From an uncultured Candidatus Binatia bacterium (GTDB lineage Bacteria; Desulfobacterota; Binatia; HRBIN30), in assembly GCA_964528465.1 (NCBI GenBank), contig CAZGSN010000667.1, positions 1-43,581 on the forward strand: 43,581 nt of DNA, given 5' to 3'. Each line of letters begins with the position of its first letter. Within the stretch, counting starts at the first letter, position 1. A program made the translations under genes and the position numbers. Positions 3,369 through 19,199 of the stretch are shown in pieces. The notes beneath the pieces are model-generated. The model worked only from the letters and a program-made list of their open reading frames with translations. It searched no databases and was not told where the DNA came from.

Positions 3369-3390
3369 CAAGTGGGCACGTTGTCTTGGA

Positions 3391-3463
3391 GAAAATCGAC
3401 AGTCTCGTTCGCCGGAATTGCCAATGAACACAGAACCCCATTTCAGAGAGAATCGACAGTCTC
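3391..3463. repeat. Two direct copies of a 16-nt motif GA(A/G)AATCGACAGTCTC, spaced 57 nt start-to-start
   Basis: gaaaatcgacagtctc at 3391-3406 and gagaatcgacagtctc at 3448-3463. The core GACAGTC is a GACnGTC palindrome. The pair is intergenic between the M16 genes. Confidence 0.6.
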
Positions 3464-3514
3464 CTTTCAAGGCGGCTGACGTACGTCGGGCGGGTGCAAG
3501 ACGGTTCTGCGACA

Positions 3515-4897
3515 TCAGTGCACCCCTCCCTGCGGCATGCCCACTTTGGGTGGGCGCTTGCTTGGATCGACGGGTAAGGGATCGAGAATGCCAACGGTGC
3601 GATTGTCGGCACGCAGATAGGCTCTGGCGACGCGCTGCACGTCGTCGGCGCTGACGTTACGAATCTTGGGCAGGTACTCGTCGATTTGCTTCCAGTCGCC
3701 GGCGATCTCGAACTGGCCGAGCATCATGCCCTGATAGAAATTGGAGTCCTGCGCCAGCACCGCCTCTGCCTCGATGCCGTTCTTGGCCTTCTGCAGTTCC
3801 TGTTCGGACACGGGATACTCTTGCAGTTGTTGCAGCTCGCGCAGCAACTCCTTCTCCAACGTGGCGACACTCTTGCCGGGTAACGGCTGGCCGTAGACCA
3901 CGAGTTGTCCAGGATCGAGAGAGGTGAAGTCGTAACTAGCGCCGACGTCGAGGGCGATGCGCTTCTCGTAGACGAGGTGTTTATGCAGGCGTGCACTCTT
4001 GCCGCCGCTCAGTACCGAAGCCAGTACTTCGAGCGCCGGTGCGTCTTGGCTCTTTAGGTTCGGCGTATGGTGGGCCAGAGCCAAGAACGGAAGTTGTGCC
4101 GGGCGCCGCAGGGTAACGCGACGTTCGCCTTGCTGCACGGGCTCGCTGGCCCGCACCTGTGGCGGCAACGGTCCGTTCTCGATGGCGCCGAAACGGGTCT
4201 CGATATCGGCGAGCAACGCGTCGCTGGAGAAATCACCAACCACAATCAGAAAGGCATTGGCTGGGGTGTAGTGACGGCGGTAGTACTCCAGGGCATCGTC
4301 GCGCGTTGCTTGGCGCAGGTCGCTCATCCAACCGACGATGGGCCAGCCATACGGATGCGCCGTGTAGGCCGCGGCGCTGATGGTCTCGAAGAGTTCGGAG
4401 ACAGGATTGTCTTCGGTCCGCAAGCGCCGCTCCTCGATTACCACGTGATGCTCCGGGGCAAACTGCTCTTCCGCGAAGCTCAGGTTGCGCATGCGGTCGG
4501 CCTCCAGCGTCAGCACGACGCCGACGCGATCACTGGCGATTTGCGCGAAGTAGGTAGTGTTGTCGTTGTTGGTGAAGGCGTTGTCGTTGCCGCCGTTGCG
4601 CTGGATGATCTTGGAGTACTCTTCCGGTCCGGTCGTAGGGGTTCCCTTGAACATCAAATGCTCGAGGAGATGCGAGAGGCCGGTCTTGCCCAGCTCTTCG
4701 TTGCGCGAGCCCACCCGGTACCAAACCTGCACCACCGCAACGGGAGCCTTGTGGTCTTCGAGCAGCAGCACCTTCATGCCGTTGGCCAGGGTCTTTTCTA
4801 CGACCCGCTCCTGGTAGGACAAGGCAGCGTCGGCGCTGGAAGCAAGCAGTGAATTAACGAGAACAAGGACGGTCACGACAAGCAAACGAGACAACAT
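3515..4897 (-). CDS. M16 (pitrilysin) family zinc peptidase, catalytic subunit type
   Basis: Inverted zinc motif HxxEH is present in GLSHLLEHLMFKGT, followed by NAFTNNDNTTYF. I chose the start at ATG 4897 (cat at 4895-4897), which gives the signal peptide MLSRLLVVTVLVLVNSLLASSADA. The longer track ORF (to 5038) adds a Cys/Arg-rich non-protein-like leader. Confidence 0.9.
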   Translation of the reverse strand: MLSRLLVVTVLVLVNSLLASSADAALSYQERVVEKTLANGMKVLLLEDHKAPVAVVQVWYRVGSRNEELGKTGLSHLLEHLMFKGTPTTGPEEYSKIIQRNGGNDNAFTNNDNTTYFAQIASDRVGVVLTLEADRMRNLSFAEEQFAPEHHVVIEERRLRTEDNPVSELFETISAAAYTAHPYGWPIVGWMSDLRQATRDDALEYYRRHYTPANAFLIVVGDFSSDALLADIETRFGAIENGPLPPQVRASEPVQQGERRVTLRRPAQLPFLALAHHTPNLKSQDAPALEVLASVLSGGKSARLHKHLVYEKRIALDVGASYDFTSLDPGQLVVYGQPLPGKSVATLEKELLRELQQLQEYPVSEQELQKAKNGIEAEAVLAQDSNFYQGMMLGQFEIAGDWKQIDEYLPKIRNVSADDVQRVARAYLRADNRTVGILDPLPVDPSKRPPKVGMPQGGVH

Positions 4898-5261
4898 GGC
4901 GGCGCTGGTTAACAGCGGGCCGGAGGGAGCACAACGCAAGCGCGGAGCCGTGCCGCGGTGTCGGCAGTTGCCGTGCGCCTTTGATCTCTTGTGAAAAGTT
5001 AGCTTTGGCGATGAGATCGCTGACTGACTTAGCGTCATCCACGTGAATGCGCGTGGTGAAGAACTTCTCTAGGTGGCCCATTACGAGGAGTGGAATCAGC
5101 ATGAGCAAGACGGTGGTCGCGCCACTGGTCACATAGTGCCGGATGCCGAGAGTTGCGTGAGGAGGCAGGCCGATAGCGATGAAATACGACACCTCGTACG
5201 CATAGCCCCATATACCCATCGGGATTGCGAGCAAAAGAAGAGAGAGTGGTAGGCGCTTCAT
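4854..5261 (-). CDS. Hypothetical small membrane protein (2 predicted TM helices)
   Basis: Internal ATG 5261 of ORF 4854..5615 gives MKRLPLSLLLLAIPMGIWGYAYEVSYFIAIGL...TTVLLMLIPLLVMGHLEKFF. The 3' tail overlaps the M16 start by 44 nt and looks less protein-like. Confidence 0.35.
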   Translation of the reverse strand: MKRLPLSLLLLAIPMGIWGYAYEVSYFIAIGLPPHATLGIRHYVTSGATTVLLMLIPLLVMGHLEKFFTTRIHVDDAKSVSDLIAKANFSQEIKGARQLPTPRHGSALALCSLRPAVNQRRHVVSFACRDRPCSR

Positions 5262-5801: not shown

Positions 5802-6122
5802 TCATGGTGCGAAGATCTCGCCCAACACCGCAAGCAGAGAATCACCCGTGCGCTTGTCAATCTGTCCCAGTCTGCGAATCAGGCGGGCTTTGTCGACGGC
5901 GCGTAACTGGTCAAGGACGACCTGACCTTCCTTGCCACGGAATCGGCAGTGGATACGCGAGGGGTATGCACTGCCCTTCGTCGTCATCGGTGCCACAATG
6001 ACGGTGCCGATATTTCGGTTCATTTCATCCGGTGAGACGACGACCGATGGGCGGGTCTTGCGAATCTCGCGCCCGACGGTCGGATCAAGGCTGACCATAT
6101 AGACCTCAAACCGCTTCACCAT
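5802..6122 (-). CDS. mazF: MazF/PemK-family endoribonuclease toxin (type II TA)
   Basis: VKRFEVYMVSLDPTVGREIRKTRPSVVVSPDEMN and TVIVAPMTTKG fit the PemK/MazF signature. ATG at 6122 (cat 6120-6122) overlaps the mazE stop (6116-6118). The track ORF starts at 6143. Confidence 0.85.
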   Translation of the reverse strand: MVKRFEVYMVSLDPTVGREIRKTRPSVVVSPDEMNRNIGTVIVAPMTTKGSAYPSRIHCRFRGKEGQVVLDQLRAVDKARLIRRLGQIDKRTGDSLLAVLGEIFAP

Positions 6123-6370
6123 TGCCACTCGCTCTCGTCCCACCGCGAGGTAGAGGTGAGATCGCCATCGAGCAAGCGATCATCCCCCGCCAATGCCATT
6201 TTACGGAAGGCGACGTCCCAGCCCTCGCGCGGCCGCGATGCCGGGCGAATGACCAGACGGTTTCCCTCAGCCTCAATCGTGACTTCCTCGCCAAGACCCG
6301 TCTGCTGCAGAAGCAACTTCGGAATCCGGACACCACGAGAGTTTCCGATGCGAACGATGCGCGTCTTCAT
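6116..6370 (-). CDS. mazE: MazE/AbrB (SpoVT-AbrB fold) antitoxin
   Basis: MKTRIVRIGNSRGVRIPKLLLQQTGLGEEVTIEAEGNRLVIRP is a canonical SpoVT/AbrB swapped-hairpin motif. ATG at 6370 (cat 6368-6370). The longer track ORF (to 6568) adds an Arg/Pro-rich leader overlapping the methyltransferase 3' end. Confidence 0.8.
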   Translation of the reverse strand: MKTRIVRIGNSRGVRIPKLLLQQTGLGEEVTIEAEGNRLVIRPASRPREGWDVAFRKMALAGDDRLLDGDLTSTSRWDESEWQW

Positions 6371-6557
6371 AGTGACTACATCGTAGCCACATTCGAATGT
6401 CGGACGCAATCGCCCCGCCGCCGGACGACGGCTATCAGCGGCGCGCGGCCGCCGCATGGCGTATCCACTTGTGAAGCGACTCATGCCGGTGGGTGACCTG
6501 TGCTTGTGCAGAGGCTCCCCAGCGGACGACGCAGTTGGCTTCCTACCACCCGGTGCC

Positions 6558-7310
6558 CTAGCCGGCACGGATTCCGGCGATGGCGTAGGCGATGTTGCCG
6601 ACGGCGCGGCATTCGGCGACGTGGTCGGTGGTGGCGGTGATGAGTACGCGCACGTCTTCTACCGTACGCAGGGCGGCAACCTCGTCGCGCCGGTGCAAGA
6701 AACGCAGGTAGTGGTCGCCCCAGCGTTGGTTGAGCACCAGTGTGTTGAGGTAGAGGCGGCCGCGCGGCAGCAACAGGCTACGCACGGCTCGTAGCATTGC
6801 TCCACCATCCTCGAACAAGTGCAGCATGCCCATCGACAGCACCGTCGCGAAGCTTGCGGCTTGGAAGGGGAGATCGTGCAAGTCGGCCTGAATCAGAACC
6901 ACGTTGGCAGGAATGCTTCCGTTGCCTTGCTGAAGTCGTGCCCGCGCGCGGCGCAGCATCTCGAGGGAGTGATCCATCGCAATCACCGGCCGCTGCGCTT
7001 GCCGATACACCTCCGCGGTAAACAGCATCGAGCCGCAACCGGCGTCGAGATACGGGCCGCTTGTAGCCGATCGCAAGGCCGCGTCGGCGAAGGCCGTGTA
7101 GTCGCGAAGATCGGACCCCCACATCCAGCGGTTGTAAAGTCGACTGCCGATGAGGCGATCGTAAATTCCCGCCAGGCGGTCGTAGTGCTGCGCCTCCTCG
7201 GTCTCAGGCAATGCCGAATACAGCCCGGGCTCTACCTCGCGCAGCTCTCTCCCCTTCAGGAGCCTCTGTGTGGCAATCTCGTAAGCCGAAGTGCTGTGCT
7301 CGCTTGCCAA
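6558..7310 (-). CDS. Class I SAM-dependent methyltransferase
   Basis: 250 aa. Motif I is YLDAGCGSMLF. It is followed by VVLIQADLHDLPF and FATVLSMGMLHLFEDG (Methyltransf_11/25-like). The TTG start (7308-7310) directly abuts the TAG stop (7311-7313) of the upstream GT-C/NHL gene. Confidence 0.8.
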   Translation of the reverse strand: MASEHSTSAYEIATQRLLKGRELREVEPGLYSALPETEEAQHYDRLAGIYDRLIGSRLYNRWMWGSDLRDYTAFADAALRSATSGPYLDAGCGSMLFTAEVYRQAQRPVIAMDHSLEMLRRARARLQQGNGSIPANVVLIQADLHDLPFQAASFATVLSMGMLHLFEDGGAMLRAVRSLLLPRGRLYLNTLVLNQRWGDHYLRFLHRRDEVAALRTVEDVRVLITATTDHVAECRAVGNIAYAIAGIRAG

Positions 7311-9953
7311 CTACTTCTCCGTGGGAATGCGCACGAGCTTGTTTTCGAGTTCGGCGACAATCACCTCGTGTCGCTGCGCGTCGAAGGCAATGCCCATCGG
7401 TGTGCGGAACTTCCCTTGCTCTGCGGTGATGGTGCGCTTGAGCTTGCCGTCCACCGTGTAGGCGCGGACTTCCTTCGCAAGCGGAACGGTGACCCAGATC
7501 GTACCGTCGGGAGCAATAGTGAGATGAGGCTCCGACCACGCGCCGCCCTGCCAGCCTTCCACCGCAAACTGCTTGAGAGGCTTGCCGTCGGGGGTAAACA
7601 CTTGCACACGGCCGTTGCCGTTGTCGCAGACGTAAACATTCCCCTTACCATCCACAGCAATGCCGACGGGCTCCAGGAAGGTGCCGACGGTGCCGCCTTT
7701 GCTGCCCCAGTCTGCCTGCCGTGCCCCTTGCGGTGAGAAACGCAGGACGCGGTTGTTCCCGGTGTCGGTGACGTAAACAGTTCCATCGCTTGCCACCGCC
7801 ACACCACGCGGGCCAAAGAGGCCGCCGCCGAATTGGCGCAGGAACTTGCCGTCTTCGTTGAATACCTGAATGCGTTGGTTCCAGGTGTCGGCAACATGGA
7901 TGGAGCCGTCTGGTCCAACGGCGACGTCACAAGGTTCCTTGAAGAATCCGACTTGGTCTCCTTGCGTTCCCCACTGTGCCAGCGGACGGAGGTCGGGCGA
8001 AAATTGCTGGATGCGATGATTGCCAAAGTCTGCAACGAGAATGTTCCCCTTGCCGTCGATGGAGATGCCACGCGGTTGGTGCAGCATGCCCAACGGCTCG
8101 CTGGCAGTGGGCATCTGATCGGGGGCACTAGCTCCCGGCGCCCGTCCCAGAGACTGTACGTCGGTTTGCGAATTGACCGGCAGCGTCGGCCACGACGGCT
8201 CTCTAGGCACCGCTCTCACATCCACTTCCTCGACGCGCAAGAGCTTGGCGATCAAAACACCGTCGTCATTTTCGGGATAGCGCACGTCTTCGAGCTTGTG
8301 ATTCGGAAAGCGCTGCAGCAAGGCGTTCAGGGCCGATGGGCCACGGTCGGTGAGCGGGATGATGAAAGCGGCGCCTTTGCCCTCGGGAGGTGCAATGTTG
8401 GCGCGGTTGACGAGGCTGATGTTTTCTACCCAGGTGTAGTTGCGACGCTCGGGATGCCCGACGCCCTGGTACGAAAGATAGGTGATGGTGTCGCGCGGCC
8501 AATTCGCACCGCCGACCCAAATGGCGTAGTCGGGCACCAAGCTCTTCACTAGGCGGCCGACCCTTGCGGTCTCCGGGTAGTATCCCCATACCGGACGCCG
8601 GTTGGGTCCGAGGAACTGCTGGTAGCTGTCGACGATGGCCGTGCCACACGTGAGCACCGCCAACGCTACTCCCAACCACACGCCGGCGCCCGGCAGCAAA
8701 CGCCGCAGTTGCTGGCGAAAGAACTCCACGCCGAGACCGGACATGAAAAACACAAACGGCATGGTGCCGATGCAGCGGTTCATGTTGGGGCGACTGATCC
8801 AGCCGGGAACCAACCCAAGCCCAAAGCCCAACAGCAGGAACTGCGCCCGCTCGTCGCGAATCTTGAGCACGCACCACAGCAGGCCGAAGACGAAGAACAC
8901 CGAGGCGGCGAGTTCCAAGCCGGGCTCACGCACGAAAAAGTCATCGCCGTTACCAGCCAAATTGAAGAGCAAGAAACTCTGGCGCACGGCCTGCCACATC
9001 TCGGCTTGCCCGCGTAGGGCGACAGCTCGGCTGTTGAAGATGCTCCAGTGCTTCACGGCAAACCAAGCCAGCGGCGCAATGGCAATTGCGAAGGCGACCG
9101 CACCGGCAAGCATGGCCCAGCCATAGCGGCGCAGAAAGCCGCGCAGCTTCCAGGATTGCAGGATCACCAGCGGTAGCCATGCCAAGAACAAGCCGGGCAA
9201 GACGCGGGAGGCGTTGTACGTATTGAGCGTGGCCGCGAGAAAGATGCCGGCGAGAGCAAAGTCCAAGGCCTTGGCGCGACGCATGCCGCGCACGAAGAAG
9301 CAGCAGGTGAGCACGGTGAAGAACGGCTGAAAATCCGAACGCCAGCCGGTACGGCTGAAGATCAAATGCCATCCGGAGCTGGCCAACAGCGTGGTGGCAA
9401 TCAGCGCTAGGCCCGAGCCGAAGCTGTTACGCGCCCACCAGTAGAAGAAGGGTAGGGTGAGGAACCCAGCCACCATGGACGGCGCTTCGATCGCCAACTG
9501 TGTGGGGCCGAGAAAATATTGCCCGACGGCTTTGAAGTAGAAGGTAAAGGTCTCACGCCCCCAGGCTTCATTGGCGTAAGCGATGTACGGCTCGCCGTTG
9601 AGAATGCGAATTCCATACATCGCTTCCCAGGCCGCATCGTGATTGATGCCCGGCGGGAACTCGCCGATGTTGTAGACAACGAAAAAGAGGCCGATCACGA
9701 GCACCGCGGCGAAGCCGATCTGTTCCTGAGCCGGCGATAACTCGACCGCGCCAGGGGAGGGCAGCTCCCGGGTGTCGTCGCTCAAGAAAAAGAGCAGGAC
9801 GAAACCGACCGCAGCCGTCAGCCACGCCCAAGCCGCTTGTTCGGGAAAGTACCTCCAAGACAGCCAATACTGCCCAATAAGCCCTGCCGCTGCCGTGGCG
9901 AGCAGCAGCAGCAGGCGTATCCAGCGTCGTGGTACGATAATGTCACTTGCCAT
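7311..9953 (-). CDS. Polytopic GT-C-fold (GT39/PMT_2/ArnT-like) membrane glycosyltransferase-like protein fused to a C-terminal six-bladed NHL-repeat propeller
   Basis: The N-terminal ~600 aa are strongly hydrophobic with many TM helices. The first-loop acidic motif is EFPPGINHDAAWEAMYG. The C-terminus (about nt 7314-8090) carries NHL blades ADFGNHRIQQF, ADTWNQRIQVF, TDTGNNRVLRF and CDNGNGRVQVF. The ATG 9953 start overlaps the upstream gene stop (9943-9945) by 11 nt; the track ORF uses GTG 10013. Confidence 0.8.
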   Translation of the reverse strand: MASDIIVPRRWIRLLLLLATAAAGLIGQYWLSWRYFPEQAAWAWLTAAVGFVLLFFLSDDTRELPSPGAVELSPAQEQIGFAAVLVIGLFFVVYNIGEFPPGINHDAAWEAMYGIRILNGEPYIAYANEAWGRETFTFYFKAVGQYFLGPTQLAIEAPSMVAGFLTLPFFYWWARNSFGSGLALIATTLLASSGWHLIFSRTGWRSDFQPFFTVLTCCFFVRGMRRAKALDFALAGIFLAATLNTYNASRVLPGLFLAWLPLVILQSWKLRGFLRRYGWAMLAGAVAFAIAIAPLAWFAVKHWSIFNSRAVALRGQAEMWQAVRQSFLLFNLAGNGDDFFVREPGLELAASVFFVFGLLWCVLKIRDERAQFLLLGFGLGLVPGWISRPNMNRCIGTMPFVFFMSGLGVEFFRQQLRRLLPGAGVWLGVALAVLTCGTAIVDSYQQFLGPNRRPVWGYYPETARVGRLVKSLVPDYAIWVGGANWPRDTITYLSYQGVGHPERRNYTWVENISLVNRANIAPPEGKGAAFIIPLTDRGPSALNALLQRFPNHKLEDVRYPENDDGVLIAKLLRVEEVDVRAVPREPSWPTLPVNSQTDVQSLGRAPGASAPDQMPTASEPLGMLHQPRGISIDGKGNILVADFGNHRIQQFSPDLRPLAQWGTQGDQVGFFKEPCDVAVGPDGSIHVADTWNQRIQVFNEDGKFLRQFGGGLFGPRGVAVASDGTVYVTDTGNNRVLRFSPQGARQADWGSKGGTVGTFLEPVGIAVDGKGNVYVCDNGNGRVQVFTPDGKPLKQFAVEGWQGGAWSEPHLTIAPDGTIWVTVPLAKEVRAYTVDGKLKRTITAEQGKFRTPMGIAFDAQRHEVIVAELENKLVRIPTEK

Positions 9954-12900
9954 AGGGGATGCGTAAGATGCGATGGTCGAGGTCGCTGACGGCAAGGTCA
10001 TCGTTGGCCACACTGTAGGCTACGGCCATCGGCGTCTCGAAGATGACGCCGGGGATGGTCTGCGATCGGATGGTGCGCAGGAGAGTACCGCTACGATCGT
10101 AGCCGCGAATCTCCTTCATGGTCGGTACCGTCACCCACAGTGTCCCCGCCTTGTCGACGGTGATGTGCGGCTCGGAGAATACTTTCGCTTCCCAACCGGA
10201 CACCGCGAACGAGCCCTGAAGCTGGCCGTCCCGCGAAAAGATCTGCACGCGAGCGTTGACGTTGTCGCAAACGAAAACGGTGCCGTCCTTGTCCACGGCA
10301 ATTCCCGTCGGCTCTTGGAACTTGCCCGGTGCCGTACCCTTGCCTCCCCACTCGGCTTCCTTCTCGCCGCGTGCCGACAGGCGCACGATGCGGTTGTTGC
10401 CGGTGTCGGCAACGAAGATGGATCCCTGGCTATCGACTGTGACACCGCGTGGCCCGTAGAAACCAAGCGCAGCCTCGCGCAGATACTTGCCTTCCTTGTC
10501 GAAGATCTGGATGCGCTGGTTCCAGGTATCGGCAACCACGACCTCGCCATTGGGTGCCACGGCAACATCACCCGGCTCATTGAACTGCCCGGGCAGCTCG
10601 CCTTTGCGGCCCCAGCCGCGCACGAACTTGAGATCCTTGTCCAACTCCTGGATGCGATGGTTGCCGAAGTCCGCGACCAGGATGTTGCCATCTGCCTTCA
10701 CGGCCACGCCGCGTGGCTGCTGTACTTGCCCCGGTGCATCCTGTGGCAGTGGTGCTTCCGCAGCTCCGGGAATGTCGGGAATCTCTTCGACCGTGGTGAG
10801 CGGCATGCCACCGGTAAACGTATCGTTGACGGCGAAGATGGTGACACCCGGGTTCTGGTACACAGGGGTCAGCAGGTCGGTCCACTCCCGGAAGCGCTCC
10901 AAATTGCCGCCCGCATAGGTGCGCCGTTCGAGGGCACCAACGAACACAAAGGCAACGTGGTAGCGCTGGAAAATGGAGCTGGCGATGTCCTTGCTCTCGG
11001 TGGTGTAGGCCAGTTGGATGTCGGCCTTGCGTTGATTGATCTGGTTCCACGGATGAGCGCGTTGGAACACATGGTACGACCACCCCAACACCGTCGGCAG
11101 ACCGGTGTTCATCGAGACGCGGGTGAACTCCTGATACGAATCGCCATGCGCTTCCATGAGCACCGGAATGCCACGCACGTTGCGGTTCAACCATTCATAG
11201 GCGGCAGCTTCGTCGGGGGCGCGCAGCGGCAAGTAGGCGCGGCCGTTGAGTGTCGGCCGTGGCGTTACCACGCGGTTGGTCTGCAAGATTCCGTATGCTG
11301 CCGTGCCGGCGGTGAACAGGCCGACGCCAACCACCACTACCATCGCCAACTGCCAGGCGCGCCGCAGCCACTTGGACAGCAGTGAGGCCTGCCACAGGGC
11401 TTGCGCGGTTACCGCCGCAGCCAGCGCGAACATGAACCAAGCCTCCAGGTAAAACTTGAAGATGGTGTTCATGCGGTCCCAGACGTAGACCAGGTCGGTA
11501 CCTGCCGTTACCGCAAAGGCAAACGTCGCGAAGGCCAGCGGCAAGCGCCAGCGGCGTTCCGTCTTGGGACTGAGGACGACCTGAAATCCTAGTAGGAAAA
11601 GAATCAACGCAAAGGCGCGGGTGGAAATGAACAGGCTCGCTGCCATGGCTGCCAGCCCGAGCACGGCAATGCCAATCCGCAGTGGACCAAGCGTGCCGTC
11701 GGCGCGGCGCAACTCGCGTACCCAGGAGGCAAACAGGAACGGCACCAAGGCACAGAAGAAGACGCCCCATATGGTGAGGAAATCCAGCGGTTGGACGAGC
11801 TTGTCCGGACCCAAAACCTCCCAACCGATGTTGCGCTCCGGCGGGTTGAAGTTTTGCCAGAAGGGCATGAACAGGAAGTACGCGCCGGCAGCGATGAGCA
11901 CGGTGGGGAACAAGACGCGCCCGAGCAGGCCGCCGATGAAACTAAAGAAGCCGGGATGCGATCCTTCGGTAAGCCACACCACGCCAAGCACGAACGGGAA
12001 GAAGAGGACGTAGGTCGGCGTGCTCCAGGCGTTGGTCACGGTGATGGTTCCAAGACACAACGACAGGAGGGCAAACACCGCCAAACGAGCCCCGGCGGGC
12101 ACGTACTCGTAACGGTCGAGGATCGTGTCGCGAATCCACAACACGGTGAGGGTGATGAAAGTCACGGTGATGGGCATCACCATCATGTGTGCGTGCAGGT
12201 CGGCGAACAGCAGGCTCCAGAACGGATACTCGTTGATGGTGTCGCGGATGACGCGCGAGGTCGCCCAGAAGTAATCGAAATTCATGGTCGGATGCGGCCC
12301 CATGAGTTCGCGCGGGCCAGAGAGGTTGCCGATCAAGGTCACGAACAACGCCGCAATGGCGCCGGTCGACCAGCGTTGGGTCAGCGCCGCCCCGGCAGCA
12401 AACGCCGCAACCGTGGTAAGTCCGCCGATCAAGCCGATGCCGATATTGAAGAGGTACCCGGTTTCAATGTTGAGCAGCTTGCCCATCGCCGCAATCGAGT
12501 AGTAGCCGAAGTAGGAGTACTGCAGCGGTGAGCCGGCAAACCACGGCTCCGGTGGCGGCAGGCTGGTGGCGCGCGTAATGGCGTTGAGGAAGGAGAAGTC
12601 CATGGGCTTCTCGCCCCAATAGATCTCCGGGTTGAAGGAGCGGATGGCAAGGAAGAACAAGAAGGCGCCCCAAAACACGATCTGGGTGGCCACCGCCTCG
12701 CTCACCGGTGTACGCTCGCGATCCGGGCGCCGCCAGGCGCGCACGCCACACAGGATCATGAAGCCAGCCACGAGCAACAGCGTGTCGCGCGTGAACTTGG
12801 CCATGTCGAGGCTAACGACGAGCCACGACAGGTAGGAGAACAACAGAATTCCCAGCGTCTTGGAGATGGCCAGCGTTCCCGGTCCGGGCAGGCGCCGCTT

Positions 12901-14739
12901 CAGTACGGGGTATACCGCCAAGCTGAGGATCTCGACCAGCGCCGCGAACAACAAGAGAGCCATAGGACCGGAAGCCACCGGCGTGCTTTCGCTGGTTGCC
13001 ACCGTGGTCTCGCCGGCATTTGCCGTGGCTCCATGGTCCTCGGTGCCGGCTAGCAGGAGGTCGTCGCGGGTCATGGGCCGCGACGGTTGACCGCGCATGA
13101 TCTTGTCGAAGATGACCTCGGTGCTGAGCTTCTCGACGTTTTGGAAGATCAGTACCTTGGGATGGTCGTAGACGGTCAGCGATTCGTCGGCGAGTTCGTC
13201 GGGGAACTCGATGCCGAACAAGGTGGGGCGGGCGTGGATCTCCTGCACGATCTTGAAGCCGAGGTCGCCGGCAAACAGCAGGTAGAAATAATTCGAGGTG
13301 TGCGGATAGCGTTCGGGGGCGCGGGTTACGGCACCGTAAAGACGCTTGGTCTGGAAGGCGATGTAGTCGCTGGAGGCAAGCTCGCTGGCGAGCTTGTTCA
13401 TCTTGGCGGAGTTGTCCGGGCGCTCGTAGTAGCCAAAGTTGGTGATCTTGTACTGGCTACTCGGCGAGCGAGGGAAGGTGAACGGAAAGCCCTCGTCCCA
13501 ATCCTGCGAGAGAATTTTGCTGCCGGCGGGGATGTGCTTGTACACCCACTGCGAGGCGCGCACGACGGTGTGGTCTTGCGTGTACGTCGACAGGAAGGCG
13601 GCGGCTGTCGCCAGGGTGCCGGCGATAACTGCCGGCGCCAAGCTGCGTCCGAGAATGCCACCTTGGCGATAGCGACGCACGATCCACTCGGCGGCCCAAA
13701 GAATGAGGAGCGGGTAGATGGGCAGCAGGTAGCGCGGAAACTTCACCTCGAACCAGCCGGTGATGAGGAAGAATGGAATCACCCACGACAGCAGAATCCA
13801 GTCGCTGGCGCTGCGATTGCGCCAAGCCGCGGTAACCCGCAGCAGGGTAGCCCAAATGGTGGCCAAGCCTAGAGCCGGACCCATCCCCCACACGGCCATC
13901 TGCGTGAGATCGTAGATGTACTTGGGGGTGTGCATGTACTGCGTCGTGTAGGCGAACTGCCCGGCATTCCGCACCATGCCGCTTTGCTCGACGATATCGT
14001 GGTAGAAGCGATCGAAATCGAGCAACGCGTAGGGCTCGGCCAAGGCGAAGGCCACAAACGCTGCGACCACGGCGGCAGCCAGCTTGCCGGTGACTGCGAA
14101 GAAGCGGCGTTCGACGATCAGCCGATGCAAAGCCGCAATGCCGAGCGGCAAGAACAGCGGCATGGCGCTGAACTTACATGCCGTGGCCAAACCGATGGCG
14201 GCACCGGCGGCAAGGAAGCTGCGCATCTTGCCGTCGTCGCTGACGCGCAAGAACTGCAGCATGCAGAAGAGGACGGTGAAGGTGAGGGTGACGTCGACGG
14301 CTAAGAAACGCGAGTTCTGAATGTGCAAGGCGCAGGCTGCGAGAAGAAGGGCGGCCACCAGGCCGACCTTCTCGTCGAACAAGCGTCGGCCCAAGAGGAA
14401 CAGGAGGAAAACGGTAAGCACGCCGAAGACAGCGGATTGGCGGCGGCCGTTGACGATGATGCCGTCATAGCTGGCAGCCATCGGGTCTACCCACGAAGCC
14501 GCCCCGGAAACGACACGGGCGATGTAGATGGGCAGGGAGCCGTAGGCAAAGAAGTCGGGGTTCCAACGGAATGGACTGAACGACAGCCGCTGCACGGCGG
14601 AGACGACGGCACGCTCGTCAGGATGAAAGAAATGCCGTTGATCCCACTCGATGTTGGTCAGGCGCGCAGCGGCTGCGAACAAGAGAATGGCGGCGAGTAA
14701 CAGACGAGGGCTAAATGCCCCTGAGCGACTACCGTTCAT
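9943..14739 (-). CDS. 1598-aa three-module membrane protein: GT39/PMT_2-like GT-C module + DUF2298 (Chlor_Arch_YYY-like) module + C-terminal NHL-repeat propeller
   Basis: The N-terminus reads LLFAAAARLTNIEWDQRHFFHPDERAV, followed by many TMs (about nt 13060-14739). The central module has GEKPMDFSFLNAITRATSLPPPEPWFAGSPLQYSYFGYY (nt 12497-12615), which is the DUF2298 hallmark, plus the C-terminal soluble part ...GIPVLMEAHGDSYQEFTRVSMNTGLPTVLGW. NHL blades ADFGNHRIQEL, ADTWNQRIQIF, ADTGNNRIVRL and CDNVNARVQIF lie at about nt 9946-10730. Confidence 0.85.
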   Translation of the reverse strand: MNGSRSGAFSPRLLLAAILLFAAAARLTNIEWDQRHFFHPDERAVVSAVQRLSFSPFRWNPDFFAYGSLPIYIARVVSGAASWVDPMAASYDGIIVNGRRQSAVFGVLTVFLLFLLGRRLFDEKVGLVAALLLAACALHIQNSRFLAVDVTLTFTVLFCMLQFLRVSDDGKMRSFLAAGAAIGLATACKFSAMPLFLPLGIAALHRLIVERRFFAVTGKLAAAVVAAFVAFALAEPYALLDFDRFYHDIVEQSGMVRNAGQFAYTTQYMHTPKYIYDLTQMAVWGMGPALGLATIWATLLRVTAAWRNRSASDWILLSWVIPFFLITGWFEVKFPRYLLPIYPLLILWAAEWIVRRYRQGGILGRSLAPAVIAGTLATAAAFLSTYTQDHTVVRASQWVYKHIPAGSKILSQDWDEGFPFTFPRSPSSQYKITNFGYYERPDNSAKMNKLASELASSDYIAFQTKRLYGAVTRAPERYPHTSNYFYLLFAGDLGFKIVQEIHARPTLFGIEFPDELADESLTVYDHPKVLIFQNVEKLSTEVIFDKIMRGQPSRPMTRDDLLLAGTEDHGATANAGETTVATSESTPVASGPMALLLFAALVEILSLAVYPVLKRRLPGPGTLAISKTLGILLFSYLSWLVVSLDMAKFTRDTLLLVAGFMILCGVRAWRRPDRERTPVSEAVATQIVFWGAFLFFLAIRSFNPEIYWGEKPMDFSFLNAITRATSLPPPEPWFAGSPLQYSYFGYYSIAAMGKLLNIETGYLFNIGIGLIGGLTTVAAFAAGAALTQRWSTGAIAALFVTLIGNLSGPRELMGPHPTMNFDYFWATSRVIRDTINEYPFWSLLFADLHAHMMVMPITVTFITLTVLWIRDTILDRYEYVPAGARLAVFALLSLCLGTITVTNAWSTPTYVLFFPFVLGVVWLTEGSHPGFFSFIGGLLGRVLFPTVLIAAGAYFLFMPFWQNFNPPERNIGWEVLGPDKLVQPLDFLTIWGVFFCALVPFLFASWVRELRRADGTLGPLRIGIAVLGLAAMAASLFISTRAFALILFLLGFQVVLSPKTERRWRLPLAFATFAFAVTAGTDLVYVWDRMNTIFKFYLEAWFMFALAAAVTAQALWQASLLSKWLRRAWQLAMVVVVGVGLFTAGTAAYGILQTNRVVTPRPTLNGRAYLPLRAPDEAAAYEWLNRNVRGIPVLMEAHGDSYQEFTRVSMNTGLPTVLGWSYHVFQRAHPWNQINQRKADIQLAYTTESKDIASSIFQRYHVAFVFVGALERRTYAGGNLERFREWTDLLTPVYQNPGVTIFAVNDTFTGGMPLTTVEEIPDIPGAAEAPLPQDAPGQVQQPRGVAVKADGNILVADFGNHRIQELDKDLKFVRGWGRKGELPGQFNEPGDVAVAPNGEVVVADTWNQRIQIFDKEGKYLREAALGFYGPRGVTVDSQGSIFVADTGNNRIVRLSARGEKEAEWGGKGTAPGKFQEPTGIAVDKDGTVFVCDNVNARVQIFSRDGQLQGSFAVSGWEAKVFSEPHITVDKAGTLWVTVPTMKEIRGYDRSGTLLRTIRSQTIPGVIFETPMAVAYSVANDDLAVSDLDHRILRIPYGK

Positions 14740-14842
14740 GTTTTCTTCTCAGGCCTCGTGAATAGGTTGTGTGCGCTGCGAGCCCAGCGCCGGCAGTGGT
14801 TGAGCTTGAAATGTGGCGGCACGGGGCTCCGATCTTGTGCAT

Positions 14843-14935
14843 GAATTCCTTCGCAAGGCAGAGCCTTGCCGGAATAAGTTCCCAGGCAGAGCCTGGGAAC
14901 CAGAATGCAGAATTCCTCGTTCCCAGGCTCTGCCC
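14843..14935. repeat. Tandem short hairpin units sharing the core AGGC-nnn-GCCT
   Basis: GCAAGGC-aga-GCCTTGC at 14853-14869. GTTCCCAGGC-aga-GCCTGGGAAC at 14878-14900 (perfect 10-bp stem). The preceding GAATTCCT(T/C)CG motif occurs at 14843 and 14911. Translations give FPGRAWEP and AEPGNEEF type spurious peptides. Confidence 0.65.
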
Positions 14936-15142
14936 TTAGCCTTACCCACAAATCGGCCGGCTGGACACCGACAGCAGAACGGAAAGGCAGCAAGGATCGG
15001 TATCCTCTCCCGTGCATCTCCTCAGCGGGGGAGAGGACACCGTATGGCTGGCGATGGAGCTTTTTTCGACCGAAAAGCCTTTCGGGGTACCGGTGTCCAG
15101 CACCCCGATTTGTGGGTAACGTAAAGGGCTCTGCCTGGGAAC
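14919..15142. repeat. 224-bp nested inverted-repeat element (MITE-like or structured-RNA-like)
   Basis: The arm at 14919-14970 (gttcccaggctctgcccttagccttacccacaaatcggccggctggacaccg) pairs with the reverse complement of 15091-15142 (gttcccaggcagagccctttacgttacccacaaatcggggtgctggacaccg), about 44 of 52 matches by eye. The core contains a 14-bp stem at 14998-15011 / 15029-15042 (cggtatcctctccc / gggagaggacaccg, 1 mismatch). It also contains a 6-bp hairpin at 15070-15085 (ccgaaa-agcc-tttcgg). Confidence 0.6.
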
Positions 15143-15155
15143 GAACGCAGGGTCT

Positions 15156-15172
15156 GCGAGGCTCAGCCTCGC
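15156..15172. repeat. Short hairpin GCGAGGC-tca-GCCTCGC of the same AGGC-nnn-GCCT family
   Basis: Perfect 7-bp stem with a 3-nt loop, read directly from the sequence. It lies 14 nt after the right arm of the 224-bp element. Confidence 0.55.
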
Positions 15173-15385
15173 GACCGGCAGCGGGGATTGATGCACAGTC
15201 CCTCCGTCCCGTGCGCCTGACATCATCGCTGCCTGACGCTGCAGCGGACAGAGTCCGATGCCACCGAGAAGTCCTCCAACCTTGAAAATGAACCGCTACT
15301 CTTCCGCCATCAGTGTTGCTTCGATGCATTGCGCTCGTACCTTGCCTTAGCTCAATCGGCGGACTGTGATTCCCATATCCCCGAC

Positions 15386-17491
15386 TCACCGTTGGTAGAT
15401 CGTGGTTCCGCCCTGTTTGAAGGCAACCTCCAAAGAGCCGAACTTCTGCAGCCCCGCGGAGGGATACTCCTTACGCTCGACCTCGCCAACGATGACGTAC
15501 TTGACGCTGTGGGCATCGAGTAGGGAAGTAACTTCTTCCAGTGTCGTGGCGTTGTAGATGCGTTTGACCTCTTCCTGGCGTTTGCCGACATCGGGATGAT
15601 TGCTACGCCACAAGCCTTCATGGTTTCCCCAACCCATCAGGGTGGGTAGGCCGGTGTTGCTCGACATGCGTGCAAAGTACGAATACGGGTTGCCGGTCGC
15701 TTCCAAGATCACCGGAAGGCCCTGGACGTTGGCGCGCAGCCATTCCACGGCGGCAAAGTCGTCGCGATGATCGCGACGCATGTAGTCGTTGCCGTCGAGA
15801 GAGCGCGGGGCGAATGGATGCGTCAACCGCGTCACGGTAACCCCTACCGGATACACAGCCGCGGCCAGACATAGGGCGCCGACCAGCGTGCCGGCGGTGG
15901 TTCTTACGTTGCTCGGCAAGCCACGGTCGGTGAGCAAGCGCATCAAGCACCACGGTCCCGCAATGGAAAGCAAGAACCAGGCTTGCAGGTAGAGTTTGAA
16001 CACTGTGTTCATGCGGTAGAGGCGATCGCCGTAAGGGTCGCGGATGAACACCAATTCACACGCCAGCAAGGCGGCGCATCCGGCGACCACCACCAGCAGC
16101 GGCCCGCGGTCTTCTTCCTCGTCACTGCCGTAGGCGGCAACCAAGGCAGCGGTCAGTATCGCTAGGAGAATCGGGAAGACGGCGTTCCCGGCCATGAGGG
16201 CGATTACCACGGCCAATACGACCAGCCCCAACAAGAGCTGTCGTTGCTCCGGCTTTGCGGAGATGTGAGGGCCGACACGCAACATCAGATAGAGCGCCGG
16301 CGCGATCAACAGGCCACCGAACACGGTCATGAACTCTGCCAGAGAAGTGGTGGCGAACTTGAAACCGACGCCGCCGCCGGGGGCTTGGAAGTTGAGATAG
16401 AAAGGAAGGAACAGAACGTAGCTGCCGACCAGCGCCCCAACCACACCCAGTACAACGCCGATGCGCTCGCGCGTGAATAGTGGGGTGAGAGGTAGGTGCC
16501 GGTGCAGCAGTAAGAAGGTCGTCATCGCCCCCACCGGCAATTCCCAGGTGCTGATTGCCACCATGGCGCCGAGGACAAAGGTAATGACAAACCACGGCCA
16601 CAATCCTTTGTAAGAGCTGGTATCGCCGCGCTCGCGTTCGGGATCGAGGAGCAGTCCGAGCAGCAGGATCATCACCGGCATCACCTGGAAGTGCGGGTGC
16701 AGATCCCCATGAATGGCGGTGAAGTAGGGAAACTCGTTGATGGTGGAGTCGCCACCGACAATGCGCGTCGAGCGGAAGTAGTTGAATGCCGTGAGGCTGC
16801 CCGACTCGAGCAGTTGTAGAAAGCCATCGAGATTGCCGAACAAGATGCCCATGGCTCCGGTGAGCAGTGCAAACGAAAGCTTGCGTGTGAGCACCATGCC
16901 AACGGCGACGAGTTCGCTGAACACCAGTCCGCCGAGGGTTGCGACGCACAGGTTGTAAGCGATCGGCGCGGCGATTGCGGTCAAGCGCGCCAAGTTGGCC
17001 AGGATCAAGTATCCGAAGTAGTAGTAGTTGAAGACCTTGCCGGCCATCCACGGATCTTGCGGCGGCATCACCTCGGTACGAATCAAGGTGTTGAAGAAGG
17101 CAAAGTCCATGTACTTCTCTTGGTCGGTGATCTGCGGCAGCAGGGAACGTTGCCAAGCGAAGAAGGCAAAGCCGAGGGTCCACAGCACGTCTGTACGCAC
17201 GATGGTGCGCCAGCCATCGCTAGCCAGCCAAGGGAGCAACGCGTCGCGGCGGCGCAGCAGCAGCACGCCGTTGAGCCCAGCGAAAAAAAGCAGCGACAAC
17301 CACAAGGAAGACGAGTACCCAATCCCCAGGTGTCCGAGCAGCCAGGCATCGTAGGTGACGACCAGCAAGGCAACGATCTTGCCGAAGGCATAGCCGTAGT
17401 CGGCGCGCTTCGAGAAGAGAACACTGGTTAACGGAAGTGCAATGAGGCCCAAGCCCTCGAGCACCAACCACCACACGACAAGCTGGCCCAT
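15386..17491 (-). CDS. DUF2298 (Chlor_Arch_YYY-type) polytopic membrane protein, function unknown (GT-C-like)
   Basis: DQEKYMDFAFFNTLIRTEVMPPQDPWMAGKVFNYYYFGYLI, with the YYYFG motif at nt 17009-17029. It is highly hydrophobic throughout. The C-terminal soluble part LPVILEATGNPYSYFARMSSNTGLPTLMGWGNHE is paralogous to the central module of the 1598-aa protein. The start is ambiguous: ATG 17491 (MGQLVVWWLVLEGLG...) or TTG 17530 (track). Confidence 0.85.
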   Translation of the reverse strand: MGQLVVWWLVLEGLGLIALPLTSVLFSKRADYGYAFGKIVALLVVTYDAWLLGHLGIGYSSSLWLSLLFFAGLNGVLLLRRRDALLPWLASDGWRTIVRTDVLWTLGFAFFAWQRSLLPQITDQEKYMDFAFFNTLIRTEVMPPQDPWMAGKVFNYYYFGYLILANLARLTAIAAPIAYNLCVATLGGLVFSELVAVGMVLTRKLSFALLTGAMGILFGNLDGFLQLLESGSLTAFNYFRSTRIVGGDSTINEFPYFTAIHGDLHPHFQVMPVMILLLGLLLDPERERGDTSSYKGLWPWFVITFVLGAMVAISTWELPVGAMTTFLLLHRHLPLTPLFTRERIGVVLGVVGALVGSYVLFLPFYLNFQAPGGGVGFKFATTSLAEFMTVFGGLLIAPALYLMLRVGPHISAKPEQRQLLLGLVVLAVVIALMAGNAVFPILLAILTAALVAAYGSDEEEDRGPLLVVVAGCAALLACELVFIRDPYGDRLYRMNTVFKLYLQAWFLLSIAGPWCLMRLLTDRGLPSNVRTTAGTLVGALCLAAAVYPVGVTVTRLTHPFAPRSLDGNDYMRRDHRDDFAAVEWLRANVQGLPVILEATGNPYSYFARMSSNTGLPTLMGWGNHEGLWRSNHPDVGKRQEEVKRIYNATTLEEVTSLLDAHSVKYVIVGEVERKEYPSAGLQKFGSLEVAFKQGGTTIYQR

Positions 17492-17750
17492 TGGAGGCAG
17501 GGTTTTGGAACAATTCGGGCATGATTGCAACGACGCCGGCTTCGCACGCCAAATCGCTTGGGCGGGGAATCCGGCTCATGCGCCGCGGGGGCGCGGCGTC
17601 TCCATTGCTTGTAAATATTGATGAATCTGAGTTGGAGACGGGCCGCCCTCGGCCCGCGTCTGGTGTAGGAATGGTTTGGCGTGCAAAGCCCCCCGCTGCT
17701 CTAAATTTGCGCGAGCCGACAAGAATCGAAGCGTTTGTTTTACAGAGTGC

Positions 17751-19199
17751 TTACATGCCCAGGTCGCGCCGGATCTTGTCGAGATCGGGGCGGAGCAGCG
17801 GGTCGTTATCTCCGAGCTGACTCATTTCCAGGAGTATGACCTCCAAATGCTCGCGGCCTTCCTGCGTGCTTGCGGCCTGGCGAGGGCTCAAGCCTTTGAG
17901 AACTTTCAGGGGGGTATCAATCCAGGTGGCGTAGTGCTTGGCGATCATTTGCTTGACGATGGCCTGCGCCCGCGGGTCGTTGCGAAGCTCCTCGGATCTT
18001 GCGGCCCGCTGGGCGGCGCCCGGGTCTGCGGGCTGCTTGTGCCGAGGATCGGTGTTCAAGGGTTGGCTCGACATGGATTGGAATAGGGTTTTCCCCACCA
18101 GGCGTCGTTCGATCTCGCCACGGATGCGAGCGGCCCTTGCTTGTGAGTCGACTTCCGCCGTCAATGCCTCGCCGTCGATACGCAGGCATCCGAGCGTGAT
18201 GTAGCCGGCTGTGGGGTCTGCCGCGTCACTGTCTCGGAACCAGCTCACATTCACGGCTTGTAGGTTGCCGGCCGAATCGTAACGGGCTCCGTCGGCTTGC
18301 TCGGCGTTGTCTAGGGCGAGGTCCTTTAGTGCGCTGAAGGCTTCCTGTGGTGTGCACTGCAAGGTGAAGTACACCTTGGTGGGAAGCAGGGGTTCGCCGT
18401 CGCTGTTGAGCATCTCAATAGTACGTTCCGGTTCCTCCGAGAACGCCATGTCGAAGTAGAACTCGCGGAGTTCGTTGGACACCCGGGTAAGAATGTCCTC
18501 TGTCAGCATTGCCGATGGCGCAAGCTCGAAGTCTTGGGCGAGTTGGGTGCGCAAGTCGAGGATCACGTGGTGCCGGCGCGGGCTCAGGGGCAGTGGAGCG
18601 CAGCCGACCATGAGCGCAATCCCATCCATCTCGATCACGCGCGTAAATAGGATCTGGCTGGGTTTCACAACACGGCTCGCCTGCAACTCGAGGACAGTCA
18701 CCTGCTGCCCAGTGAGAATATTCCGTAGCCCCATGCTGGTTCCAGGCTGGACCTCGATCACGGAATAAAAGGAATAGGGAGTTCGGCAAAGAGTGCTTGC
18801 CAGACGTTGCTCGAGGCTGTCGAAGCGCTCGGGGTGGCGTGCGATGGCCTCTAGCGCCAGCGGTTGCTTGGGCAGGTCTATGTCAGGCCAGTCTTCGGGG
18901 TCCGGACACCAGTCGAAGGTGATCCAAATCGGGAACATGGTCTCGCGGAACAGATCTTCATCTTCCTGGTCGAATTCATCGCCTAAGGTGAGGTCTTCCC
19001 ACGCCAGTTCCGCGAGGGCAGAGGATGCGTAGCGCTGGCGGGCGTAGCGGATGGACGCGTCGACAAGTCTACCCTCGGCAGTGCGTAGCCTCTCGCGCGC
19101 CAGCGTAGTGGGCGATGGCGGTGCTCCCGCGCAACAATGCTTGAACTTTTTACCACTGCCGCAAGCGCACGGGTCGTTGCGACCGATCTTGTTCCTCAT
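17751..19199 (-). CDS. SEC-C motif (CxC...HCC zinc-binding) protein of unknown function
   Basis: N-terminal MRNKIGRNDPCACGSGKKFKHCCAG is a SEC-C metal-binding motif. ATG 19199 is preceded by aaGGTGcagg (SD-like, 5-nt spacer). The track ORF extends to 19277. The C-terminal HYATWIDTPLKVLKGLSPRQAASTQEGREHLEVILLEM loosely resembles DUF2384/Xre-antitoxin-type helical domains (weak call). Confidence 0.7.
   Translation of the reverse strand: MRNKIGRNDPCACGSGKKFKHCCAGAPPSPTTLARERLRTAEGRLVDASIRYARQRYASSALAELAWEDLTLGDEFDQEDEDLFRETMFPIWITFDWCPDPEDWPDIDLPKQPLALEAIARHPERFDSLEQRLASTLCRTPYSFYSVIEVQPGTSMGLRNILTGQQVTVLELQASRVVKPSQILFTRVIEMDGIALMVGCAPLPLSPRRHHVILDLRTQLAQDFELAPSAMLTEDILTRVSNELREFYFDMAFSEEPERTIEMLNSDGEPLLPTKVYFTLQCTPQEAFSALKDLALDNAEQADGARYDSAGNLQAVNVSWFRDSDAADPTAGYITLGCLRIDGEALTAEVDSQARAARIRGEIERRLVGKTLFQSMSSQPLNTDPRHKQPADPGAAQRAARSEELRNDPRAQAIVKQMIAKHYATWIDTPLKVLKGLSPRQAASTQEGREHLEVILLEMSQLGDNDPLLRPDLDKIRRDLGM

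Follow-up and report, generated by a model that had tools for sequence, protein, structure and literature searches.

The stretch of DNA analysed here, referred to below as the window, is 43,581 nt long and comes from an uncultured Candidatus Binatia bacterium (contig CAZGSN010000667.1, positions 1 to 43,581). Our subject is a giant fusion gene on its minus strand (9943-14739), whose reading frame runs from an ATG through 1598 codons without interruption to a stop and encodes a protein with three parts: a PMT_2-like membrane module, a DUF2298 membrane module and an NHL beta-propeller. Both membrane modules are predicted to have the fold of the C-type glycosyltransferases (GT-C), and the gene belongs to a cassette that recurs in related genomes. 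The gene was defined from its open reading frame (ORF), from Pfam and NCBIfam matches and from its homologues.

All three parts were identified by the family searches. PMT_2 (PF13231) matched residues 102-231 (E = 4e-16; 60.1 bits against a gathering cutoff of 26.1) and PMT (PF02366) residues 99-208, covering model positions 86-201 only (E = 2e-9; 37.8 bits against 22.7). The DUF2298 model (PF10060) was matched over its whole length (positions 1-488 of 488) by residues 633-1104 (E = 6.9e-87; 292.8 bits against 27.8), and positions 5-726 of the 727 in TIGR03662 (chlor_Arch_YYY) were matched by residues 595-1304 (467.9 bits against 300.25). NHL was represented by four significant stretches (E = 6.6e-35; 117.9 bits against a cutoff of 20). 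An original prediction, made without database searches, had proposed one chain with GT39-like, DUF2298 and NHL parts, and this is borne out by the matches on the intact ORF, including the DUF2298 hidden Markov model (HMM) match by which the central module was to be checked. It had also called the central module a paralogue of the neighbouring stand-alone DUF2298 protein (15386-17530), and BLASTP agrees (28% identity over about 700 residues, E = 3e-62); the peptide strings it cited were all found in the translations of the two proteins. The central module is about 710 residues long, rather than the 670 it had been given.

Since we have only one sequence of this window, which may be metagenomic, there is a formal ground for asking whether so long an ORF is an artefact, of chimeric assembly or of a frameshift, that joins separate genes; nothing else was found in favor of this. 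A homologue search that covered 5.8 billion proteins (sources include NCBI, JGI, ENA and Logan) returned at least 120 independent protein clusters, 48-96% identical to the fusion and with the same set of Pfam domains. Their lengths are mostly 1580-1670 aa, their alignments in most cases cover 98-100% of the query, and the contigs, many of them long (up to 1.7 Mb), are for the most part labelled Candidatus Binatia. In addition, tblastn matches cross both module junctions in dozens of genomes, the base composition of the gene is even throughout, and the topology described below has the right parity without an extra helix. These full-length homologues and reference loci spanning both junctions exclude the chimeric joins near positions 13000 and 10750 against which the original prediction had cautioned, and the chance that the ORF is an artefact is negligible. 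The 1598-aa fusion is a genuine single polypeptide.

The N-terminal module comprises residues 1-565. Its membrane domain (residues 1-387; 13579-14739, minus strand) has 11 transmembrane (TM) helices and was assigned a PMT_2, GT-C_A core from Pfam, AlphaFold2 (AF2) models, profile searches and Foldseek. Members of the GT-C_A class have, by definition, a core of TM1-7 in which a pair of juxtamembrane helices separates TM1 from TM2, the tip of the first helix bearing an acidic residue that is essential (PMC12041299). In the AF2 model, helices 40-51 and 69-81 come after TM1 (11-27), and the N-terminal tip of the first carries an HPDER motif (residues 39-43; 14611-14625) whose H39, P40, D41, E42 and R43 are each invariant in 65 of 65 full-length homologues. 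Both the pair of helices and the conserved acidic tip are therefore present in the module, and the Asp-Glu pair of HPDER are the candidate catalytic residues. The membrane domain is followed by a periplasmic alpha/beta domain (388-565; 13045-13578), delimited from the AF2 secondary structure, invariant columns and topology, in which WDEGFP (414-419) and DHPK (525-528) are invariant. Between the two GT-C modules lies a linker rich in Thr, Ser and Ala (566-589; 12973-13044) that appears to be disordered, the predicted local distance difference test (pLDDT) score being below 50 at residues 568-584. A profile of the N-module matched yeast Pmt1 (6p25_A, E = 6.7e-6), and the AF2 model of residues 1-1200 (pLDDT 85.3) matched only GT-C enzymes in Foldseek, among them Pmt1, Pmt2, Pmt4 and ArnT. 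We found no Pfam match to a MIR domain in the 1598-aa protein, and the TM7-TM8 loop has only about 50 residues. Based on the partial PMT match and the missing MIR domain, we consider the N-module to be PMT_2-like and not a canonical GT39 enzyme. Its score against TIGR03663, the Agl23 family, was 29.6 bits (E = 3.4e-7), far under the cutoff of 126.25, and it is not a member of that family.

The DUF2298 membrane domain (590-1153; 11281-12972, minus strand), placed by Pfam, AF2 and Foldseek, has 16 TM helices, three extra ones at the N-terminus and then a GT-C_A core. It is followed by a C-terminal periplasmic alpha/beta domain (1154-1304; 10828-11280; AF2, Foldseek and alignment). When modelled alone the module reached a pLDDT of 92.9 and a predicted template modelling score (pTM) of 0.94. 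In a Foldseek search of the PDB with this model, the matches with a probability of 1.00 were GT-C glycosyltransferases only; the matches obtained were DPY19 (7zlh, E = 2e-8), AglB (5gmy, 5e-7), yeast STT3 (8agc, 8e-7), ArnT (5f15, 3e-4), AftA (8if8, 4e-4), PglB (5ogl, 4e-4) and Pmt4 (9i5k, 1e-2), and those that came next were unrelated transporters with probabilities below 0.25. The C-terminal domain matched the C-terminal globular domain of AglB (3vu0) with probability 1.00 and a TM-score of 0.55 on the target. The predicted structure thus suggests that DUF2298 has a GT-C fold, with DPY19, AglB/STT3/PglB, ArnT and AftA as its nearest relatives. The GT-C_A hallmarks are also found in the model: core TM1 (679-701) comes after the three extra helices, TM2 spans 760-787, and helices 712-722 and 744-755 sit between them. 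An EKPMDF motif (710-715; 12595-12612) lies at the tip of the first of these juxtamembrane helices, with E710 in 44 of 44 aligned sequences and D or E at position 714 in 44 of 44. The GT-C-type nature of DUF2298, until now a guess, has consequently gained a confident predicted structure, Foldseek matches and GT-C_A hallmarks in both modules of the fusion.

The alignment from which these counts were taken comprised 44 DUF2298 sequences from Binatia, Acidobacteriota, Chloroflexota, Bdellovibrionota and others. Invariant in all of them are Y741, N805, E837, P839, H849, H851, W905, N1091, T1092, F1094, K1095, W1101, E1196, G1219, R1237 and E1271, and D847, R1089 and H1223 are found in 43 of 44. 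All of these lie in loops assigned to the periplasm or in the C-terminal domain, several of them in two aligned motifs, TINEYP...DLHAH (834-851; 12187-12240) in the periplasmic loop before module TM7 and DRMNTIFKFY (1088-1097; 11449-11478) at the periplasmic start of module TM15. The fused and stand-alone copies both retain every invariant polar residue, so neither paralogue looks degenerate. The YYYxG signature reads YSYFG in the fused copy (741-745) and YYYFG in the stand-alone copy; Y occurs at position 742 in 41 of the 44 sequences, and YSYFG is a variant of the motif and not a loss of the region.

Two other resemblances of DUF2298 were set aside. TINE was compared with the TIXE motif of oligosaccharyltransferases, and this equivalence was rejected; TINE lies in the loop after core TM3 and TIXE in external loop 5, and because the loop positions differ the likeness is probably coincidental. 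Matches of the DUF2298-only profile to triosephosphate isomerase (E = 0.07-0.5), which involve a C-domain stretch of the form YVxVGxxERRxY, were judged to be due to chance. The stretch at 10921-10956 (residues 1262-1273), VAFVFVGALERRTY, gave the only weak PDB profile match, to YVIIGHSERR of triosephosphate isomerase, and contains the invariant E1271.

The propeller occupies the C-terminus of the fusion (1335-1598; 9946-10737, minus strand), behind a linker of residues 1305-1334. Pfam, the profile search and its blade motifs indicate a six-bladed NHL beta-propeller, and on inspection of these motifs residues 1342-1596 contain six blade-length units, four canonical and two degenerate. Its profile matched the NHL domains of TRIM3 and TRIM71 at about 1e-60, with further matches to Brat and PknD. 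These strongest matches are all ligand-binding NHL domains, which makes it quite improbable that the propeller, instead of serving for recognition, is an enzyme that acts on the product, for example as a lyase, lactonase or hydrolase. Such a role could be read into the sub-threshold Pfam and NCBIfam matches to SGL (gluconolactonase-like, 8e-12), Vgb_lyase and ScyF, and into the presence among the profile matches of peptidylglycine alpha-amidating monooxygenase, which has an NHL-type domain; these matches are, however, below family cutoffs or generic to six-bladed NHL/SGL propellers, and no catalytic residues were identified in the propeller.

Hydropathy gave about 27 TM helices and the AF2 models 27 long helices (11 + 16), within the 25-30 that had been estimated earlier, and hydropathy and two AF2 models concur on their layout. 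With the N-terminus inside, Lys and Arg make up 21% of the loops assigned to the cytoplasm versus 7% of the short loops assigned to the periplasm. In this N-in topology the three soluble domains and each of the conserved polar motifs would be in the periplasm. The N-module ends outward, and no adaptor helix is needed after it, because the helices of the DUF2298 module begin on the outside and are even in number.

The fusion is not a rarity, as had been implied. Among the 150 best DUF2298 representatives (clustered at 50% identity), which we scored with HMMs built from our own alignments, 54 had DUF2298 alone, 50 the N-module followed by DUF2298 (N-DUF), 23 the three-part form (N-DUF-NHL), 13 the N-module followed by two DUF2298 modules in a single chain (N-DUF-DUF), seven DUF-NHL and three DUF-DUF. 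The N-module and DUF2298 are thus joined in 86 of 150; based on these counts fusion with a PMT_2-like module is the majority state and the three-part form a populated class, to which the protein of this window belongs as an ordinary and well-conserved example. A tblastn scan of reference genomes located the complete three-part gene in Binatia, in Thermoanaerobaculia/Acidobacteriota and in some metagenome-assembled genomes labelled Myxococcota (the labels of such genomes being those given by depositors), and the two-part N-DUF version in Chloroflexota, Bdellovibrionota and others. An exhaustive HMMER search for DUF2298 found 6,259 clusters at 50% identity (E <= 1e-3), abundant in Binatia, Acidobacteriota, Bdellovibrionota and some Firmicutes, and the earlier statement that the family occurs mainly in Archaea and Chloroflexi was accordingly too narrow. 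In a rough neighbor-joining tree, DUF2298 copies cluster by position (N-fused versus second or stand-alone) and not by phylum. The labels that such proteins carry in databases are "DUF2298 domain-containing", "YYY domain-containing" and "glycosyltransferase family 39 protein", and the literature searched gave no functional or architectural description for DUF2298, PF10060 or TIGR03662, the two papers in which DUF2298 is named not being functional ones.

The frequent pairing of a PMT_2-like module with DUF2298 bears on an alternative to both modules being transferases. One GT-C-fold module could be the transferase while the other flips, scrambles or presents the lipid-linked sugar, the fusion coupling donor delivery to transfer, and a constant association of the two would fit such a delivery-plus-transfer pair. 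The N-module weakly matches TIGR03663/Agl23 (E = 3.4e-7), and Haloarcula hispanica Agl23 is described as a putative hexose-phosphate-dolichol flippase that rescued yeast rft1-delta and, when purified, translocated M5GN2-PP-Dol in liposomes (PMC11182771). Set against this is the score of 29.6 bits, below the 126.25 cutoff, whereas the N-module is above threshold for PMT_2 and PMT, which are transferase families. Moreover, both modules retain the invariant acidic motif that is catalytic in GT-C_A enzymes (PMC12041299), and both DUF2298 paralogues retain all invariant polar residues. We therefore regard a division into carrier handling and transfer as unlikely and prefer to see both modules as transferases.

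The original prediction overlooked that the fusion is part of a multi-gene cassette with a second DUF2298 gene, a PMT_2+NHL partner and usually a GT4 gene. In the window, the first of these partners lies upstream of the fusion (15386-17491, minus strand) and encodes a protein of about 701 aa (DUF2298, 1.1e-93; TIGR03662, 517.5 bits) whose partnership is conserved by synteny. The mechanically called ORF (15386-17530, minus strand) starts at a TTG and has 714 codons; orthologues have 701-705 aa and align from Met14, and translation therefore probably begins at the ATG at 17491. The SEC-C gene described below lies directly upstream of this stand-alone DUF2298 gene and is not kept there in relatives. 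Downstream of the fusion is the other conserved partner (7311-9953, minus strand; Pfam, BLASTP and synteny), a protein of 880 aa from its likely Met with a weak PMT_2 match, an NHL propeller and, as in the fusion, a weak match to TIGR03663/Agl23 in NCBIfam. Its start overlaps the stop of the fusion gene by 11 nt, the same arrangement being present in another locus (L081), and its propeller is 48% identical to that of the fusion (BLASTP). A probable origin of the three-part protein is the gain, by an N-DUF fusion, of a copy of its partner's propeller.

Many loci of Binatia and Acidobacteriota have the order DUF2298, GT4, fusion and PMT_2+NHL. In one genome of Binatia, GCA_026004215, the four proteins have 704, 440, 1592 and 881 aa, respectively, and the start and stop codons of their genes overlap or almost abut. 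Of the loci that we fetched, 25 have GT4 between the fusion and the stand-alone DUF2298 gene; in five further loci it adjoins the fusion, directly upstream of it in two Chloroflexota loci. A complete Anaerolineae chromosome (L074) partitions the parts otherwise, with PMT_2+DUF2298 (1533 aa), DUF2298 (854 aa), a 613-aa protein of unknown type and PMT_2+NHL (1072 aa). Synteny, this Anaerolineae partitioning, the N-DUF-DUF chains and the position-wise grouping in the tree together point to the cassette being old, its pair of PMT_2-like modules, its pair of DUF2298 modules and its propeller or propellers having been inherited together. In seven Acidobacteriota (Thermoanaerobaculia) loci (L029, L031, L034, L040, L051, L070 and L080), two to three successive NHL matches were found by tblastn after DUF2298; one propeller is C-terminal in the fusion and the others are apparently separate downstream ORFs or, at some of the loci, possibly tandem copies. 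This points to an expansion of propellers around the cassette that is specific to the Acidobacteriota lineage.

The window has no GT4 gene. The position it holds in relatives is taken by a non-coding spacer of 646 bp (14740-15385) that contains a nested palindrome of about 230 nt. The palindrome is imperfect, with arms at 14917-14970 and 15091-15144 (54 nt, 83% complementary) and inner and flanking hairpins; the 16-mer GTTCCCAGGCAGAGCC in the spacer is unique within the window, and an Rfam scan of the window gave no matches. As the spacer is located exactly at the GT4 site of relatives, it may be an element resembling miniature inverted-repeat transposable elements (MITEs) or repetitive extragenic palindromes (REPs), or the scar of a deletion. 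A 217-aa ORF across it (14736-15389) was rejected as a gene because it has no Pfam or NCBIfam match and an Arg-rich, junk-like translation, and relatives have GT4 or a short spacer there.

The remaining genes of the window include further large ones that are glycan-related and that, like a SEC-C gene, were considered as partners. These encode a PMT_2 protein of 1146 aa (25319-28759, plus strand), an 820-aa protein with weak PMT_2 and PA14 matches (29072-31534, plus), a 1726-aa protein with two Laminin_G_3 domains and a weak NHL match (19721-24901, minus), a 2117-aa TPR protein with a BcsC-like C-terminus that is possibly an outer-membrane polysaccharide exporter (31776-38129, minus), and a 508-aa SEC-C protein with an N-terminal metal-binding motif and no other family match (17751-19277, minus). 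The Laminin_G_3, BcsC-like TPR, other PMT_2 and SEC-C genes were rejected as members of the cassette based on their lack of synteny in relatives, apart from an occasional PMT_2+PA14 gene; in a Chloroflexi genome DUF2298 is listed beside PMT2/PA14 and PMT2 genes (PMC8756737). A 1439-aa protein with AAA_22 and DUF6079 matches (38966-43285, plus) is apparently unrelated to the glycosylation genes. The regions 1899-5038 and 6116-7310 (both minus) encode a pair of M16 (insulinase-type) peptidases, a small MazE/AbrB-like protein and an S-adenosylmethionine-dependent methyltransferase. Of these genes downstream of the cassette only the methyltransferase is syntenic, and solely in the closest relative (L018).

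Taken together, we think it reasonably probable that both modules of the fusion are periplasm-facing glycosyltransferases that depend on polyprenyl-phosphate-linked sugars and act on an external acceptor, positioned by the globular domains and propeller, in a complex with their paralogous partners. Catalysis, type of donor, acceptor, order of action and complex formation are here inferred. Each module would take its sugar from a polyprenyl-phosphate carrier in the outer leaflet and, with the acids at its first juxtamembrane helix tip (D41/E42 in the N-module, E710/D714 in DUF2298), transfer it to a non-cytoplasmic acceptor held by the globular domains and the propeller. This acceptor might be a glycan that is being extended, or a protein that is secreted or belongs to the envelope. 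The idea of the original prediction that two sequential transfers of lipid-linked sugars are tethered to one recognition domain is plausible. The protein probably does not act alone; it would work with the second DUF2298 protein, the PMT_2+NHL protein and usually the cytoplasmic GT4. Pmt1-Pmt2 and EmbA-EmbB are heterodimers of GT-C proteins, and by analogy the paralogous modules of the cassette probably pair. That the genes of two GT-C paralogues always accompany each other, and that some lineages have them fused (N-DUF-DUF), suggests an obligate pair.

The nature of the acceptor is where a further alternative departs from this proposal, and only there. The acceptor may be a polysaccharide or lipid-linked glycan and not a protein, in which case the cassette would serve to assemble the envelope or an exopolysaccharide, much as the mycobacterial GT-C enzymes do with arabinan and mannan, and the propeller would bind carbohydrate or hold the complex together. 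AftA, AftB, EmbA/B and ArnT are among the Foldseek matches, and a cytoplasmic GT4 is usual in the cassette. On the Pseudobutyrivibrio plasmid pNP95, a DUF2298 gene lies within a surface-polysaccharide cluster, where its neighbours encode an O-antigen-ligase family protein, a GT2, a GtrII-like protein, a DegT aminotransferase and a sugar epimerase. The window itself contains the genes for the BcsC-like TPR protein, the further PMT_2 proteins (one with PA14) and the protein with two Laminin_G_3 domains, but these are not conserved beside the cassette in relatives. The best structural matches (DPY19, AglB, STT3 and PglB) modify proteins, the C-terminal domain of DUF2298 resembles the acceptor-binding domain of AglB, and NHL propellers are best known in general as binders of proteins or other ligands. 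We consider a glycan acceptor to be a real possibility, albeit one that we lean against.

Several observations weigh against our proposal that both modules are transferases. The global TM-scores of the DUF2298 model in Foldseek are modest (0.34-0.40), and the relationship to GT-C enzymes is therefore at the level of the fold only. A DUF2298-only profile found no solved GT-C relative in the PDB, including any oligosaccharyltransferase, and profile-profile similarity between the N-module and the DUF2298 module was undetectable (hhalign probability 9%); since sequence profiles show no link, the GT-C assignment rests on predicted structure. We have also assumed that the invariant residues group into one pocket. 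We found no gene for a polyprenyl-phosphate sugar synthase (GT2) in either the window or the cassette, the GT4 that is usual in the cassette is missing from this window, and the literature searched contained no biochemical data on any DUF2298 protein. Finally, Agl23, a GT-C-like relative of the N-module, has been assigned flippase and not transferase activity (PMC11182771).

What is new here is the placement of DUF2298 in GT-C_A at the level of the fold, with candidate residues and a topology, and the definition of a conserved cassette. DUF2298 is a large and phylogenetically broad membrane family with essentially no literature, and its placement offers targets for mutagenesis in the form of candidate catalytic residues, topology and partner genes. 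Relatives are present in tractable hosts, namely cultured members of the Chloroflexota and strains of clostridia and Pseudobutyrivibrio. Few characterised enzymes combine two different GT-C cores in a single chain, an arrangement that would imply a physical coupling of two lipid-linked-sugar steps. As Binatia, Acidobacteriota and Chloroflexota are little cultured and their envelopes poorly known, the cassette may build a major surface glycoconjugate that has not been described. A bolder claim, that DUF2298 is a previously unrecognised and very large GT-C family and the cassette a new, widespread machine for extracytoplasmic protein glycosylation, strikes us as doubtful in its entirety. If it were true, the machine would combine an oligosaccharyltransferase-like heterodimer, an O-mannosyltransferase-like module to which the heterodimer is physically linked and a propeller that holds the acceptor, and the GT-C family would extend to some 6,000 clusters (50% identity) in Archaea and at least five bacterial phyla.

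Comparison with known systems begins with the family to which the central module belongs. The central module and its 701-aa neighbour both score far above the curated cutoffs of TIGR03662/DUF2298, and both copies contain its motifs EKxMDF, YxYxG, TINExP, DLHxH, DRMNTxFKxY and TGLPxxxGW. According to its TIGRFAM description, the family includes members that carry an additional N-terminal region and the domain in duplicate. The general plan of STT3, AglB, PglB and DPY19, a GT-C core of many TM helices and then an extracytoplasmic globular domain, is shared by DUF2298 (Foldseek E = 2e-8 to 4e-4), which likewise has acidic residues in the first external loop and, in the next, the acid and histidine motif DLHxH. 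We take this motif to be reminiscent of the metal-binding Asp/His of AglB. DUF2298 differs from these enzymes in having no sequence homology to them, no WWDYG and three added N-terminal TM helices; WWDYG is absent from the whole 1598-aa translation, which also has no STT3 match in Pfam, and the protein is thus not an STT3-family oligosaccharyltransferase.

The N-module resembles the PMT enzymes of GT39 in its 11 TM helices, cytoplasmic N-terminus, loop-1 DE motif and periplasmic TM7-TM8 loop, but it differs from GT39 and from ArnT (GT83) in having a C-terminal alpha/beta domain of about 180 aa in place of MIR and in being fused to a second GT-C module. With Agl23 it shares the character of a PMT-like polytopic protein, which in Agl23 acts on dolichol-phosphate-linked sugars, and a weak match; Agl23 is reported to be a flippase or scramblase and not a transferase, and the N-module is far under the family cutoff. 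Genes for TIGR03663 and TIGR03662 presumably tend to occur together, which would parallel the joining of N-module and DUF2298 in the fusion. The one haloarchaeal DUF2298 locus that we read, the only one in the plasmid collection, had no Agl23-type neighbour and no informative neighbours. Its family matches place the fusion in TIGR03662/DUF2298 and in PMT_2, and outside canonical GT39 and the Agl23 and STT3 families.

Two further systems are comparable in their architecture. TMTC1-4 and the bacterial PMT_2-TPR proteins have a GT-C core with an extracytoplasmic C-terminal repeat domain that selects the acceptor, and the fusion may be analogous to them, although its repeat domain is an NHL propeller and not a TPR and follows two GT-C cores. 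Unlike the single pairs Pmt1-Pmt2 and EmbA-EmbB, the cassette has two pairs of paralogues, one of DUF2298 and one of PMT_2-like modules.

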